The notes under the pieces were generated by a model, which worked only from the letters and a program-made list of their open reading frames with translations, was not told the origin of the DNA and did not search any database. A stretch of DNA of 64,000 bases from an uncultured Gemmatimonadales bacterium (GTDB lineage: Bacteria; Gemmatimonadota; Gemmatimonadetes; Gemmatimonadales; GWC2-71-9). A program made the translations under genes and the position numbers. This document shows positions 38,863-47,468 of this stretch, piece after piece. The stretch lies in contig CAWHFW010000005.1 in NCBI GenBank assembly GCA_963828735.1, positions 2,656,001 to 2,720,000 of the forward strand, in the 5' to 3' direction. Position 1 is the first letter of the stretch; each line of letters begins with the position of its first letter.

Positions 38863-41535
38863 CTACTGCCCGCCCGCCTGCAGCCGCTGGCGGAGCTCGG
38901 TCCGCCAGTTCGGCACGACGACCAGCGGGTAGGTCGCGGACGCCAAGCTCGGGCTCACGATCCGGGAACCGTCCCGGCTGACGTCGAAGTTGGCCTGGCC
39001 GAACCCGGTGGCGGCGCTGAGGATGTTGGCAAAGGCGGTGTCTCGCGAGATCACTCGCAACCCGGGGGAGGTCGCGAGCCGCGCTTCGATGACGGCCGGT
39101 CCCGAGACGTAGTAGAGCCGGGTGCCGTCCGCCGACCAGGCGGGCCCGGCGCCGCCACCTACCGAGATCTGGACCTTGATGCCCGGATCCGGATACGAGC
39201 GGACGTAAATCTCGAACCGCCCGGATTCGTTGGTCGCGAGGGCGGCCCATCGCCCGTCCGGCGATATGCGCGGCGTAACGTCGTTGGGCCCCGTCGCGCT
39301 GTACATGCTGAGCGCCCGGTTCGAGTCCAACGACACCCGCTGAATCGTCCACGCTGTATTGAGGATGCTCTGCACCAGCAGGGACCGGCCGTCCGGCGCC
39401 AGATCGACGATCGGGCTCAGCACGGGCACATCGACCAGCTTCTCCGGCGCGGTCGCGCCCCCGACGGACTGGACCCAGATGGCATCCTTGGGTCCGCTGC
39501 CCGGTGCAGAGTACACGATCCGTTCCCCGTCGTGGGTCCATCCAAAGGACGTGAGGGTGCCCGCGGAGGTGAGCCGGGAGAGCGTCGCCGTCGCGATGTC
39601 GTAGATCCACACGTCCGCTTTGGATCGTTCTCCGATCAGGACGGCGATGCGGCGACCATCCGGCGACAGCCGCGGGCTGGAGAAGGCGCGCGCCTCACGC
39701 GTGATCGGGTGCGACCCGCCGGACCGATCGATCCAGGTCAGCTGCGAGTGGGGGCCTTCCAGGCCCGAGACCAGCGCTCCTCCGGAGGAGATGAAGACGC
39801 CGGAGTTGCCGTTGAGCGCCGACTCGACCGAGACCGGGTCGAGCACGGGCACGGGCTTCCCCATGACCTTCCGCCGCGACAGATCGATCGGCACGGCCAT
39901 CACGGCACCGTCCGCCTGGACGTAGACCAGCGCGCCATCGATCACCGCCAGCGGCCTGATACCCTTGATGTCGAGCCGGGTGACGGCGCCGTCCTCCAGC
40001 GAGGCGATCGCCAGCCTGGACCGGCCCAGCGCGCCCGACCAGATCGTGAACACGACGCCGCGGCCGTCCGGCAGCGCGATCGGCCAGTCGTGCTCCCGCT
40101 CACCCTTCGCGGTGTCGGGCTGTGTGAACTCGGTCAGCTCGCCGCCCGCGACGCTTACCCTCATCAGCCCGGGGTGGCTTCGGGTGGACCCAGTGACCAG
40201 CTCCCCCTTGGTTGTCCAGTCCGCACCGTTGCTGGCGCCGCCATCGGCGATCGTGACCGGGGCGCTGCCGTCGAGCCGGACCTTCCTCTCCTTGCCCGCC
40301 ACCTCGAACGCCACCCAGCGGCCGTCCGGCGAGAACAGCGGTTGGGTCGCCGCCTCGGTGCCGGGGATCGGGTGGCCCTCGAGCTGATCGGAGCGGCGCG
40401 CGTACAGCATCTGGCTGCCTCGTTGCCGGACGCTATACACCAGGGTGCCGCCGTCCGGCGAGATCGCTGCGGGCCACGGGTAGTTGTCGACGACGGGCGC
40501 GCTGTCCGAGCCCGCGAACACGAAGCGGAGCGGGGGCAGCTCGGCGCGGGGCGCCGGTGGGCGGCCGCGCAGCGCGGCGAAGCCGATCGCGACGAGGAGC
40601 GCAGCGGCGAGCGCGAGGACGATGGGGTCGCGAAGGCGGGAGCGGATCGCGATTCCCCGACCGGCGGTCGCCGGGGCGGCGGCCGTCACCCGGCGCGTGG
40701 TCGTCGGGCTCGCCAGCGCCTGCGCGAACTCCGCCGCCGTGCCGAACCGATCGGCCGGGAGCTTCTCGAGCGCCGTGAGCACCGCCGCCTCGACCTCAGG
40801 CGGGATGGTGTGACGCTGGGGCAGCAGCGGACGCGGGGCTTCGGTCACCACCCGCGCGACGATGGCCTGCGCCGTCGACCCGGTGAACGGCGGGTCGCCG
40901 GTGAGCATCTCGTAGAGCACCGCGCCGAGGGCGTAGACGTCCGAGCGCGCCGTTATCTCGCGCTCGCCCATCGCCTGTTCGGGGGACATGTAGTGCGGCG
41001 TGCCGAGCGACATGCCCGTCTCGGTCATCCGGGTGCCGCTCGCCTTGCTCGCGGCGAGCGCGATGCCGAAGTCCGCCACGAGGGCCCGGCCGTCGTGCAG
41101 CAGGATGTTCTCGGGCTTGATGTCGCGATGGATGACGCCGTGGCGATGCGCGTAGTCCAGCGCCGAGGCGACTTCGCTTGCGACCCGGATCGCGTCGGCC
41201 ACGGGCAGCTGCTTCTCCCGGTTGAGCCGGTCGCGCAGCGACTCGCCCTCGACGAAGGGCATGACGTAGAACAGGAAGGAGTCGGCTTCGCCCGAGTCGA
41301 ACAGCGGGAGGATGTGCGGGTGCTGGAGATTGGCGGTGAGCTTGATCTCGGCCAGGAAGCGCTCGGCGCCGATCACGGCGGCGAGCTCGGGGCGCAGCAG
41401 CTTGAGGGCGACCTTGCGGTCGTGCCTCAGGTCCTGGGCGAGGTACACGGTCGCCATCCCGCCCGCGCCGATCTCACCTTCGATCCGGTACCGGTCGGCG
41501 AGCGCAACCTGGAGCCGGTAGAGCAGCTCGGGCAT
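38863..41535 (-). CDS. Ser/Thr kinase with TM and PD40/TolB-like beta-propeller
   Basis: Kinase domain nearly identical to that of 35034-37709; divergent propeller. Confidence 0.93.
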   Translation of the reverse strand: MPELLYRLQVALADRYRIEGEIGAGGMATVYLAQDLRHDRKVALKLLRPELAAVIGAERFLAEIKLTANLQHPHILPLFDSGEADSFLFYVMPFVEGESLRDRLNREKQLPVADAIRVASEVASALDYAHRHGVIHRDIKPENILLHDGRALVADFGIALAASKASGTRMTETGMSLGTPHYMSPEQAMGEREITARSDVYALGAVLYEMLTGDPPFTGSTAQAIVARVVTEAPRPLLPQRHTIPPEVEAAVLTALEKLPADRFGTAAEFAQALASPTTTRRVTAAAPATAGRGIAIRSRLRDPIVLALAAALLVAIGFAALRGRPPAPRAELPPLRFVFAGSDSAPVVDNYPWPAAISPDGGTLVYSVRQRGSQMLYARRSDQLEGHPIPGTEAATQPLFSPDGRWVAFEVAGKERKVRLDGSAPVTIADGGASNGADWTTKGELVTGSTRSHPGLMRVSVAGGELTEFTQPDTAKGEREHDWPIALPDGRGVVFTIWSGALGRSRLAIASLEDGAVTRLDIKGIRPLAVIDGALVYVQADGAVMAVPIDLSRRKVMGKPVPVLDPVSVESALNGNSGVFISSGGALVSGLEGPHSQLTWIDRSGGSHPITREARAFSSPRLSPDGRRIAVLIGERSKADVWIYDIATATLSRLTSAGTLTSFGWTHDGERIVYSAPGSGPKDAIWVQSVGGATAPEKLVDVPVLSPIVDLAPDGRSLLVQSILNTAWTIQRVSLDSNRALSMYSATGPNDVTPRISPDGRWAALATNESGRFEIYVRSYPDPGIKVQISVGGGAGPAWSADGTRLYYVSGPAVIEARLATSPGLRVISRDTAFANILSAATGFGQANFDVSRDGSRIVSPSLASATYPLVVVPNWRTELRQRLQAGGQ

Positions 41536-42628: not shown

Positions 42629-45600
42629 GTGTCCGATCTGCGCGCGCAGCTCGAAGCCGGCCTGACTGATCAGTATGCCTTGCTCCGCGAGCTCGGCCGC
42701 GGCGGCATGGCGACGGTCTTTCTCGCGACCGACCTCAAGCACGATCGCCCCGTCGCCTTCAAGGTGCTCCATCCCGACCTCGCGCAGTCGCTCGGCCCCG
42801 AGCGGTTCCAGCGCGAGATAAGGCTCGCCGCCCGGCTGCAGCATCCGCACATCCTGACCGTGCACGACTCCGGTGCCACGGCCGGTCATCTCTGGTTCAC
42901 CATGCCGTTCGTCGAGGGCGAGAGCCTGCGCGACCGGCTCCGGCGCGAACGGCAGCTCCCGCTCGAGGACGCGCTCCGCATCGCCCGCCAGGCGGCGCAA
43001 GCCCTGCACTACGCGCACGAGCACGGCGTGGTCCATCGCGACATCAAGCCCGAGAACCTGCTGCTCACGAGCGACGGCAACACCCTCGTCGCCGACTTCG
43101 GTATCGCGCGGGCCCTCGGCTCGGCGGACGATGACCAGCTCACCCAGACCGGCATGAGCGTGGGCACCCCGGCCTACATGAGCCCCGAGCAGGCCACCGG
43201 CGACCGCGCGCTCGACGCGCGGTCCGACGTCTACAGCCTGGGCTCGGTGCTGTTCGAGATGCTGGCGGGCGAGCAGCCGTACACCGGTCCCACGATGCAG
43301 GCCATTCTGATGAAGCGCCTGTCGGAGCCGGTGCCGCGGGTCCGGAGCGGGCGGCCGTCGGTGCCGGAGACGGTGGACGCAGCGATCTCCAAGGCCCTCG
43401 CGGTGGTGCCCGCCGACCGCTACGCCACCGCTGCCCTGTTCGCCAAAGCCCTCGATCAAGCCGCCACGATCAGCGGCAGTGCCATGGCGGCGACGACGCC
43501 CGTTGGGATTCCCGCTGCCACGACCGTCGCCGCCGAGCCGCGGCCGGCGCCCGCGTCCCTGCCGCGCTCGAGCCGCCGGCGCCTCGGCGTGGCGCTGGCC
43601 GGCGCGGGGCTGCTGGTCGCGGCACTGGTCGGGTGGTGGGCGCTCCGTCGAGCCCCCGCCGGCCCCGCCTCGGCGAACCACCTCGCCGTTCTGCCGTTCG
43701 CCGTCCATGGCGGCGGGCGGCTCGATTTCCTGGCCCAGGGCATGGTGGACCTGTTGAGCCGAAACCTCGACGGCGCGGGCGACATCCGGAGCGTCAACGG
43801 CGCGACCGTCCTGGCCGCGGCGCACGCCGACGGCGGCGTGGCCGATCTGGAGGAAGGGCGGCGGCTCGCCCGTCGGTTGGGCGCCGGGCTCTACGTGCTC
43901 GGCAGCGTGAGCGCGATCGGGAACCAGGTGCGCATCGAGGCCAGCCTCTACGACGGCGCGCCAGCGCAGCCGGCTATGGTCTCGCAGGCGAGCGTGAGCG
44001 GCGACACCACTCAGCTGTTCGAGCTGGTGGACCGGCTGGCCGGCGACCTCATGGTGCGGCAGGGCCGGGGCGTCGGCTCGCGCCTGCTCCAGACCGCCGC
44101 CACCACTACCCAGTCGCTGCCCGCGCTCAAGGCGTACCTCGATGCCGAGGGGCAGCTCCGCCGCGGCGGGTTCGACTCGGCGCTGGCCGGCTTCCAGCAG
44201 GCCGTTCAGCTCGACAGCACCTTCGCGCTGGCCTACTACCGGCTGGCGGTGGCCGCCGCGTGGTCCAGGCACACCGCGCTGATCCGGCCCAATACCGAGC
44301 GCGCCGTGCGCCTGGCCGATCGGTTGAGCGAGCGCGACCGGCGGCTGCTGGAATCGTTCGCGGCGCTGGCCGACGGCAAGCCCGACGATGCGGAGAACGG
44401 CTACCGCGGCATTCTCCAGGACTATCCCGACGACCTCGAGGCGCAGTGGCAGCTCGCCACCGTGCTCAACGTCTACAATCCGCTGCGCGGGCGCCCGATT
44501 GCGGAATCGGCGCCGGTGTTCGACGGAGTGGTGAAGCTCGACCCCGAGTTTCTCTGCCCCATATGACCCATGATGCACCTCGCCGTGAGCGAGGAGGACA
44601 TCGCGAAGGCCGAATCGCTGGTCGCCAGGGTGGGGAAGGACTACGCGGATAGCGCCATGTTCGCGGTGGCCGAGGGCGACAGCGCCCTGGTCGCGCGGCT
44701 GCTGCGTGAAGCCCGGGACAGCGCTCACATCGGTTTGGTGCTCAATGCCGCGTGGCAGGTCGGCGAGTGGCTGGAGCAGCCGGCCGCCGCCGAGCCGTTC
44801 GCCCGGGTCGGCGCGGCACGTCCCCAGCTGCCGGCGCGGCTCAACGCCGCCCTGGCGGAGAACCTGGTCAGCCAGGGGCGCTGGGCGGCGGCGGACAGCG
44901 CCTTCCTCCGCGCTGTCGGCACGGCCAACACCCCACTGCCGCGGCTGGAGCGGGGGATCACGGCGGCGCTCCCCTTCCTGCAGGTGCCGCGGCCGGTGCT
45001 CCAGGCCATCAGCGCCGATCTCTCGGCCTGGGACCCGGCGACGGACCGGTCGTTGGCGGTCGCTGCCGACCCCAGGGCCGCCATGGTGCCCGCGGTCCGC
45101 CTCTATGCGCTGGGCCTCCTCGCCGTGCGGCTCGGCGAGCCGGAGGCGGCGGCGCGCGCCGCGACTCAGCTCGAAGCGCTGCCGGTGTCGGATCAGGGCG
45201 CCGGGCCGGCCCGTTCGCTGGCGGCGGCGGTGCGGGCGGACCTGGCGCTCACCGCGCGCCGCCCGGCCGATGCGTTGACGGCGCTGGCGGGCGTGCGGGG
45301 CGCCGTGCCGCTGAGCCTCAGCGGCACGGCGCCGTTCTCCGAGGACTACGCGCGCTACCTCCGCGGCGAGGCGCTCCTCGCGCTCGGCAAGGACGCCGAG
45401 GCCCGACGCTGGCTGGAGAACGGCTTCGGCGGCACGCCGGACGTCATGACCTTCCGGGTCCCGGTGCTGTTCCGGCTGGGCGACCTCTACGAGCGCGGGG
45501 GCGAGCGGCAGAAGGCCATCGACGCATACGCGCGGGTCGTGCGGCTCTGGTCGGCCTGCGACGCGCCGCTTCGGCCTGCTGTGGACGATGCACGGGCACG

Positions 45601-45634
45601 GCTGGCGCGGCTGACGGCGGAGCCGAGGAGCTAG
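42629..45634 (+). CDS. Ser/Thr kinase-TM-TolB-N-TPR protein with one in-frame TGA (44564-44566); candidate selenoprotein, 1001 aa, Sec at codon 646
   Basis: ORFs 42629-44566 and 44570-45634 are in the same frame, separated only by TGA and CCC (F-L-C-P-I-*-P-M-M-H). The helical/TPR character continues across the stop. Confidence 0.75.
44567..44603 (+). promoter_or_regulatory. Putative bacterial SECIS element
   Basis: TGATG-ca-CCTCGC-[CGTGA]-GCGAGG-agga-CATCG. The apical loop starts 17 nt after the TGA and has G at position 2 followed by U. Confidence 0.6.
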
Positions 45635-45785: not shown

Positions 45786-45896
45786 CCAGCATCGTCGGAA
45801 TAGTCGGCGGTTCGTGATGGTCGGATGCGCCGCTGTCTGGCGGAGCCTGGCACTCCGCCCCACCTTTGGGATCGTGAGCTCCGGCCCGAGGGCAAC

Positions 45897-47430
45897 GTGG
45901 CCGATCCTACCGCTTACCACATCCCAGCTCCGAGTCATCAGCCGCAGCCCGCCTCGATCGTCCGGGTGGCTGTCGCTGTTCTATGCGTCGGAACCGCCCG
46001 CTTCCCATTCCCCGGTCCCCTCGCGGCGCAAGGCGTAACCGGCGCGGCCGTCGAGGGCAGGGTGCTCGGCGTGGACAGCACCCCGGTGGAGCAGGCGATC
46101 GTCCAGGTGCTGAACACGTCCACCGGCGAGCGGTCACAGGCGACGACGGGCGCTCGTGGCCGCTACTTCATCGAGTATCTGTCGGTGGGCGGGCCGTACC
46201 GCATCGAGGTGGTCGCCATCGGGTACGAGCCGGCGGGGCGGGACTCCATCTTCCTCGCGCTTGGCCAGCGCCTGACCGCAAACTTTACCCTGACACCGGC
46301 CGTGGTGCAGCTGCAGGAGATCACCGTCAGGGGTACCACGGATCTTCGCCTCGGCGCCGCCCGCACCGGTCCCGCCCAGATCATCACGGACAGCACCATT
46401 GTCCGGCTACCGGTGAACCACCGCGACTACACCGAGCTCGCCGTTCTCTCGCCCCAGGTCACCAAGAGCCCGAACGGCGGGCTGTCCTTCGCGGGGCAGC
46501 ACGATCGGTACAACAGCATCCAGATCGACGGGACCAACAACAACGACCCCTTCGGCCGCTCGTTCTCCGGGAACGGTACACCGGGTTGGGCCGTCGGGTT
46601 GACCGCGTTCACTCCCGAAGCGGTGAAGGAGCTTCAGGTCGTGAGCGCGCCGTTCGATGTTCGTTACGGCGGCTTCGCCGGCGGCCTGATCAACGCCGTG
46701 ACCCGCTCGGGCACGAACCGGGTCGAGGGCTCGATCCTGGGCTATTTCGAGAACGCCGACCTGACCGGCACGGACTCGACCGGCAACCGGGCGAGCGAGT
46801 TCAGCCGGAAGGAGCTCGGCCTGACCCTGGGCGCGCCGATCGTGCGGGACCGCGTCGCGGTGTTCGTCAACGCCGCGCTACGCGAGGAGGTGATTCCCCA
46901 GTCGGTCCCTGTTCCGACCAGCGACACGACCGGCGGAGCGGACTCGGCCGGGGTGGGAATCCGCTACGAGAGCCTGGTGCGCTTCCAGGACCTCTTGCGG
47001 AACTACGGTGTCGAGCCGGGAACCTTTTCTGCCGGGGCGTACCATGCTCCCACCAGCAATCTCTTCGTCAAGGTGACGGCGCAACTCGGGACGAACAGTC
47101 GGCTGGCGGTATCCCACAACTACGGGCACGGCAACGTCCGGGACGAGTCCCTCGGCCGGTCCACCGACTCCTATCCGCTCTCCTCGAGTGGCGGTGAGAA
47201 CCCCGAAACCATCAACGCCACACGGCTGGCCTGGACCACGGCCTTCGCGGCACGGCTCTCCAACGAGCTCATTGTGGCCCGAGTTGACGACCGGCGAAAC
47301 TGCTTTCCAACCTCGGACTTTCCGGCAGTGTCCGTGCGGGCTGACGGCGGGGAGCTTTCCGCGGGAGTTGCCGGCAGCTGCCTCGGGCTCGAGGCCGGGC
47401 ATACCATCTGGGAGATGACCGACAACGACA
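45897..47430 (+). CDS. TonB-dependent receptor (Oar-like, N-terminal carboxypeptidase-regulatory-like domain), truncated at the chimera junction
   Basis: LSVGGPYRI, LPVNHRDYTEL, IQIDGTNNND, APFDVRYGGFAGGLINAVTRSGTN; stops at about 510 aa. Confidence 0.85.
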
Positions 47431-47432
47431 TG

Positions 47433-47468
47433 GCAATCGTTTTTTGTTAAGCGTTTCAGCGTCTTGCT
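47433..47468. other. Probable Nanopore adapter remnant (chimeric junction)
   Basis: GCAATCGT plus TTTTTGTTAAGCGTTTCAGCGTCTTGCT resemble the ONT ligation-adapter strands GCAATACGT... and TTTT...GTACTTCGTTCAGTTACGTATTGCT. Genes on both sides are cut off. Confidence 0.8.

Follow-up and report, generated by a model that had tools for sequence, protein, structure and literature searches.

We analysed a window of 64,000 nucleotides (nt) from the genome of an uncultured Gemmatimonadales bacterium (contig CAWHFW010000005.1, positions 2,656,001 to 2,720,000), in which the gene for a receptor-type Ser/Thr kinase is interrupted by an in-frame TGA. The UGA at 44564-44566 of the window is very probably a selenocysteine (Sec) codon, which would make this a genuine selenoprotein gene. 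We favor this reading because the TGA is conserved, alternates with Cys among homologs, is followed by a conserved hairpin, and occurs in a genome that has the Sec machinery. Read directly from the sequence, the junction (44555-44575) is TGC CCC ATA TGA CCC ATG ATG. The TGA joins two open reading frames (ORFs) in the same frame, 42629..44566 (645 aa) and 44570..45634 (354 aa), exactly as the original prediction had described in claiming that the kinase ORF stops at C-P-I-TGA and stays open for 355 further codons. Taken as a residue, the TGA yields a predicted 1001-residue product with Sec at position 646 (U646), 355 sense codons after it and a terminal stop, encoded by a full-length gene at 42629..45634 on the forward strand, as are all features below unless noted. 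The motif at 44555..44566 (TGC CCC ATA TGA) would then be C643-P-I-U646, a CxxU motif. The downstream ATG had been said to lack an obvious Shine-Dalgarno (SD) sequence, and inspection by eye likewise found no purine-rich SD upstream of ATG 44570 in this region of ~72% G+C. In comparisons with four close relatives, most nucleotide differences past the TGA are at third codon positions (e.g., 24/26/78 by codon position against locus L042), which indicates that the downstream sequence is under purifying selection.

The TGA is conserved across distant relatives. Related DNA loci were collected from metagenomes, reference genomes, and 401 genomes within the order. The TGA was present at the aligned column in 33 of these 49 loci (window included), and in every case a conserved ORF followed in the same frame. 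These 33 loci contained 27 distinct junction sequences, and two further genomes brought the total to 29 distinct junctions. One row of either set (L049, from the unpublished genome G077) carries none of our conclusions. The two further genomes (G499 and G530) came from a phylum-wide sample of 401 genomes and belong to other families of the class. In all, the TGA carriers come from independent assemblies and represent at least five Gemmatimonadota families. One genome, G133, has two copies of the TGA-containing form (C94:1128-2675 and C92:1864-3411), with 49-50% identity to the window.

At the protein level, we searched databases with residues 420-1001 and took the best 120 clusters. Proteins ending exactly at the TGA accounted for 96 of these clusters (including the product of the window itself), with 57-96% identity to the query; 95 of these truncated calls end in ...CPI and one in ...CTM, and the related loci have the in-frame ORF downstream. 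Nine clusters were continuous proteins with CxxC at the site (P0002-P0006, P0056, P0086, P0105, P0120), and 15 had no Cys pair there. The aligned column therefore holds TGA or Cys in these close forms, and what selenoprotein surveys look for was found, namely an in-frame TGA conserved with coding sequence on both sides and at least two homologs with an aligned Cys (nine clusters). In addition, three genomes had a UxxU form (UPIU or UPTU) with two in-frame TGAs 9 nt apart (L053 in G067, L054 in G281, and L056 in G328). The UxxU forms have a single downstream hairpin, and the two 9-nt stretches that each end in a TGA-CCC unit nearly repeat one another. Three of the CxxC clusters (P0056, P0086, and P0105; ~790 aa) have no kinase Pfam domain on record, so the Cys-bearing sensor module also seems to occur with another N-terminal part or with none.

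A quick maximum-likelihood tree (IQ-TREE) with support from the Shimodaira-Hasegawa-like approximate likelihood ratio test (SH-aLRT) grouped the [C/U]xx[C/U] forms together (SH-aLRT 86) and the UxxU forms in one clade (96). The CxxC form P0005 was nested within a starred CxxU clade (99). The CxxC label needed three changes on this tree, and its starred branches force at least two. No genome carrying the CxxC form was found among the 401 genomes of the order and the 401 of the phylum sampled. In distant paralogs the site held no Cys and no TGA. Six such paralog hits that had been flagged with one TGA were rejected, as their TGAs were ordinary C-terminal stops; Sec would therefore be confined to the [C/U]xx[C/U] clade, and the normal use of TGA as a terminal stop in these paralogs argues that TGA is not reassigned in this group. 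A Fimbriimonadales match (L027) of only 23 residues was discarded as irrelevant.

Directly downstream of the UGA lies a candidate selenocysteine insertion sequence (SECIS), whose conserved core at 44578..44594 consists of a 6-bp stem (CCUCGC/GCGAGG) and a 5-nt loop (CGUGA) with G-U at loop positions 2-3, at a spacing of 17 nt after the UGA. Across the 29 distinct junctions, 172 of the 174 stem cells pair, and both the 17-nt spacing and the loop G-U at positions 2-3 are kept in 29/29. The closing pair is C-G in 26 junctions, G-C in one (L081), U-A in one (L056), and broken in one (L025), giving two compensatory changes. Even L081, the most divergent carrier (39% identity), keeps the G-U at positions 2-3 and the 17-nt spacing, although its loop otherwise differs. 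A covariation score of 0.044 was obtained, compared with 0.011 for shuffled alignments (0/500 reached 0.044), the significance being overstated as the sequences are related. Furthermore, 37 degenerate codons within 50 codons of the TGA encode conserved residues, and a single codon is used at 4/4 of those inside the hairpin and at 2/33 of those outside it. This codon usage clearly indicates constraint on the hairpin at the RNA level. The five close Cys forms have residues that appear incompatible with encoding one or both stem arms, the loss of the hairpin being judged here from protein sequences alone.

The original prediction had drawn a larger hairpin. Its 6-bp upper stem, loop G-U, and 17-nt spacing proved real and conserved, but its lower stem is not conserved beyond close relatives. 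In the window, the minimum free energy (MFE) structure is an extended hairpin at 44572..44602 with a lower stem of 5 bp (44572-44576 with 44597 and 44599-44602), predicted almost as first drawn; this form occurs in this genome and its close relatives only, and in distant orthologs the lower stem is different, shifted in register, or missing. A repeated element was considered as the origin of the motif and rejected, as the genome contains a single copy of the exact hairpin motif.

The genome also contains the components for Sec insertion, with a tRNA-Sec (65.2 bits; anticodon tca by ARAGORN) and profile matches to selB (256 bits), selA (322 bits), and selD (371 bits), so that all four of selA, selB, selC, and selD are represented, selA and selB being frameshifted in the assembly. 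A second selenoprotein gene, SelW-like (Rdx), was found at C5:2254924-2255133, with an in-frame TGA at C5:2254951, a CxxU motif, and a hairpin of its own. An intact selA match above the cut-off was present in all 16 other genomes that carry the TGA form.

It should be noted that several observations weigh against reading the UGA as Sec. The window hairpin has an MFE of -18.9 kcal/mol (z = -1.54), and 16 of 200 shuffled sequences fold as well; taken alone, the hairpin is within chance, and its significance comes only from conservation. L025 and L052 each have one broken stem pair (an inner pair in L052), four of the six stem pairs are invariant, and the covariation comes from two sequences only. 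No Rfam match was found in 44450-44750 at E values up to 10. As selA occurs in 309 of the 401 genomes of the order (the unpublished genomes G358 and G090 being counted in this tally only), finding it alongside the TGA form carries little weight. Finally, selA of this genome (C2:304867-306146) is read in three frames, with three single-nucleotide insertions when compared with G139 and G026, and selB (C2:157206-159039) gives two matches in different frames. Because of these frameshifts, the Sec pathway in this particular organism may not be intact.

The frameshifts are also the basis of a rival explanation, in which the family encodes a selenoprotein while the Sec pathway of this organism is broken, so that translation ends at the UGA and yields only the 645-residue form. 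However, the essential gene rpoB (C2:619695-624120) is likewise split into two frames on the same contig, with rpoC intact, and contig C2 seems to carry indel errors. We therefore attribute the selA and selB frameshifts, provisionally, to assembly error. The original prediction had warned of read errors elsewhere on its contig. In addition, the tRNA-Sec, selD, the SelW-like gene, and the 355 downstream codons of the kinase gene are all intact, and the third-position bias of the differences from close relatives extends over those codons. We consider a broken pathway improbable.

The split could alternatively reflect two separate genes, with the TGA as a true stop and a TPR protein starting at ATG 44570 or a nearby GTG. 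Gene callers divided the family in this way in the 96 truncated clusters, an ATG lies one codon past the TGA in most orthologs, and a GTG lies within the hairpin in 28 of the 29 junctions. However, the continuous CxxC homologs have Cys exactly at the TGA, and the frame is identical on both sides in 29/29 junctions. If the TGA were a stop, the UxxU forms would end three codons earlier, yet the P-I/T between their TGAs is kept. A start at the ATG is also not general: the five codons that separate the TGA from the hairpin include no ATG in L050 and L051, and the first ATG of L052 is two codons past the TGA; the residues P-[ML]-x-x-L-A-V between the TGA and the hairpin are nevertheless conserved, in L050-L052 as elsewhere. 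Together with the lack of a visible SD and a structure model in which one continuous solenoid passes through the site (see below), these observations make two genes still less probable than a broken pathway.

A further alternative is that the UGA is read through independently of Sec, by a near-cognate tRNA that inserts Trp or Cys. UGA followed by C is a weak termination context in Escherichia coli, and the base after the UGA is C in 27 of the 29 junctions. However, L080 and L081 have UGA-A, and near-cognate decoding leaves unexplained the conserved hairpin at a fixed spacing, the G-U of its loop, the frozen synonymous sites, and the alternation of TGA with Cys, so that we regard it as very improbable. 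The codon directly 5' of the UGA (44561..44563) is ATA in 26/26 junctions that have Ile there, and L080 and L081 also have ATA. It is one of the 2/33 single-codon sites outside the hairpin, an A+T-rich codon in a 72% G+C genome. The fixed ATA and the UGA-C suggest selection on the codon context of the UGA.

That the TGA is a nonsense mutation, a pseudogene mark, or a sequencing error is scarcely credible, since in spite of the indel errors elsewhere in the assembly this TGA is shared by 32 other loci, drawn from independent assemblies, and by public contigs, and the sequence downstream of it appears to be under purifying selection. A DNA contig of run X1 (1438 nt) spans 44000-45146 with 0 differences, and a contig of run X6 spans 44538-44709, again with 0 differences. 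An RNA library (X15) yielded a 315-nt contig that spans 44341-44655 across the TGA with two differences, both elsewhere; this is no proof of transcription. None of the four public runs compared listed a variant at 44564-44566. The TGA is not a read error.

The predicted product has the layout of a membrane receptor. The original prediction of a 1001-aa Hanks-type kinase with Sec beyond a transmembrane (TM) helix agrees with the Pfam match, the single hydrophobic segment, and the structure model, the side of the membrane following from topology. Residues 16-269 (42674..43435) form a Hanks-type Ser/Thr kinase domain, expected to be cytoplasmic, which matches PF00069 (Pkinase) with 171.1 bits (cut-off 31.7) and has the catalytic Lys (VAFK 42), HRD 136, DFG 156, and an APE-like motif (SPE 185). 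A single TM helix is predicted at approximately residues 321-339 (43589..43645), where Kyte-Doolittle hydropathy averaged over 19 residues is highest for the segment beginning at residue 321 (mean 2.07), which is flanked by RRR on the N-terminal side and RR on the C-terminal side. Beyond it lie an alpha/beta domain (residues 345-476; 43661..44056), predicted to be extracytoplasmic and labeled TolB-like after the names that JGI gives to homologs, and an all-helical TPR-like solenoid (residues 477-1001; 44057..45631) that continues through the TGA and has Pfam TPR repeats (TPR_2, 31.8 bits on the downstream ORF). As the kinase is necessarily cytoplasmic, the CxxU site is predicted to lie outside the membrane.

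Residues 345-1001 were modeled with AlphaFold2 from a 28-row alignment (mean predicted local distance difference test score (pLDDT) 89.6; predicted template-modeling score (pTM) 0.83). The model shows mixed strands and helices in its residues 1-132, the alpha/beta domain, and then one continuous helical solenoid straight through the TGA position, with pLDDT 84-92 at the site. Cys643 is placed in a loop (model residues 294-300) and Sec646 at the N-terminus of a helix (model residues 301-310). A Foldseek search against the PDB returned only generic TPR superhelices (template-modeling scores 0.14-0.34) and no informative analogue of the Sec site. The motif lies within an all-helical TPR solenoid rather than a thioredoxin fold, and the 40 top listed matches were all-helical repeat proteins, mostly TPR.

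We propose that a minimal SECIS, consisting of the 6-bp G+C-rich stem and the 5-nt loop at a 17-nt spacing, would recruit SelB carrying Sec-tRNA(Sec). SelB would bind the hairpin loop and deliver Sec at the UGA, and the ribosome would read through to give one 1001-residue protein, with a cytoplasmic Hanks kinase, one membrane helix, and an outward sensor made of a TolB-like alpha/beta domain and a long TPR solenoid. A second UGA, located 26 nt from the loop, would be decoded through this one hairpin in the UxxU forms. Where Sec insertion fails, a 645-residue kinase without about two thirds of the TPR solenoid would be expected. The Cys643/Sec646 pair may act as a reversible selenenylsulfide switch or as a binding site for soft metals or electrophiles, and its state may alter the sensor and hence the kinase output.

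Placed at the N-terminus of a helix, the C/U pair is similar to CxxC sites that are redox-active or bind metals, and by this analogy a selenenylsulfide or soft-ligand switch that modulates the sensor is our best guess for its role. Against such a function stands the fold, which is TPR and not thioredoxin-like. More speculatively, the CxxU/UxxU pair might sense extracytoplasmic oxidants, electrophiles, or soft metals and metalloids and set the kinase output, with selenium supply choosing between the full-length and the 645-residue form; we put this combined proposal forward tentatively and consider it rather doubtful. If it holds, the UGA would be a built-in selenium-status switch for a phosphorylation pathway, and the protein would be the first selenium-dependent signal-transduction receptor in bacteria.

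Several known systems resemble parts of this gene. Bacterial selenoproteins with CxxU, UxxC, or UxxU motifs decoded via an in-ORF SECIS, including SelW-like, Trx-like, Prx-like, and other proteins, are described in a review, which already lists UxxU variants for Prx-like, FmdB-family, and a metal-binding protein (PMC13188914). Our gene shares with them the in-frame UGA, the Cys homologs at the same column, and the small hairpin with a loop G just downstream. However, it encodes a 1001-residue signaling receptor, and its motif lies in a TPR solenoid instead of an oxidoreductase fold.

As in the SECIS of the E. coli fdhF type and the bSECISearch consensus, the stem-loop lies directly 3' of the UGA in the coding sequence and has a small loop containing G. 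The loop G-U and the 17-nt spacing (26 nt for the upstream UGA of UxxU) fall within the range of the consensus model. In contrast to those elements, only the 6-bp upper stem is conserved here, the lower stem is variable, and Rfam gave no match; SelB binding is predicted. One selenoproteome survey (PMC1088965) used as a criterion a stem-loop that directly follows the UGA and whose small apical loop includes a G. Such a stem-loop is present immediately downstream in 29/29 junctions, and its covariation is thin.

SelO is reportedly a selenoprotein with a protein-kinase-like domain; it is a soluble pseudokinase and AMPylase with Sec near the C-terminus. Our protein differs in having a canonical Hanks kinase (PF00069 with catalytic motifs) and its predicted Sec on the other side of the membrane, within a distinct sensor domain. 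PMC12013277 reports a SelO-like selenoprotein from bacteria. The original prediction knew of no described Sec-containing protein kinase. The kinase-fold SelO is in print, but Sec in a Hanks-type receptor kinase seems to be new. The novelty is therefore narrowed to Hanks-type receptor kinases.

The PknB-PASTA and PknD receptor kinases share the N-terminal kinase, one TM helix, and a C-terminal sensor with our protein, and its best NCBIfam match was the kinase part of PknB_PASTA_kin (303 bits, below the 450-bit cut-off of that model). Its sensor is TolB-like and TPR with a predicted Sec, in contrast to PASTA or a beta-propeller. The same TolB-like and TPR module is found on other output domains, in SARP-type regulators and in TIGR04510 cyclases (peptide-modification-system). 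JGI names homologs as SARP/TolB-like/TPR proteins, and TIGR04510 scores 83 bits on residues 406-889. Unlike our protein, the inspected homologs of this type (P0058, P0059, P0063, P0069, P0077, P0114, L055, and L057-L070) have no Cys/Sec pair at the site.

NCBIfam contains no selenoprotein model for this protein. In the searched main texts of a 2026 prokaryotic selenoproteome review, deep-Sep, and BSepDB, there was no mention of a kinase (other than PSTK), a TPR family, or such a family from Gemmatimonadota, the family table of BSepDB perhaps falling outside them. Full-text literature searches returned nothing closer. A Ser/Thr receptor kinase whose sensor domain carries Sec is apparently uncatalogued.

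Catalogued prokaryotic selenoproteins are nearly all small redox enzymes, and Sec in the sensor of a receptor kinase would extend selenium biology to bacterial signaling. The family is abundant in soil and rhizosphere Gemmatimonadota and is systematically split by gene callers at the UGA, so that both the receptor architecture and the selenoproteomes of these organisms are likely mis-stated in databases. The natural CxxC, CxxU, and UxxU versions of one site would be useful for testing the advantage of Sec over Cys, and the very small SECIS, which would act on UGAs at two different spacings, could help to test how SelB measures distance.

Two neighboring genes flank the kinase gene. Directly upstream, on the reverse strand (38866-41535), is a divergent gene for a second Ser/Thr kinase (890 aa), which contains beta-propeller repeats of the PD40/TolB type. 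Directly downstream, on the forward strand (45825-47447), is an ORF of only 541 aa with a CarboxypepD_reg domain and an outer-membrane beta-barrel, which resembles the start of a TonB-dependent-receptor-like gene and may have been cut by a frameshift.

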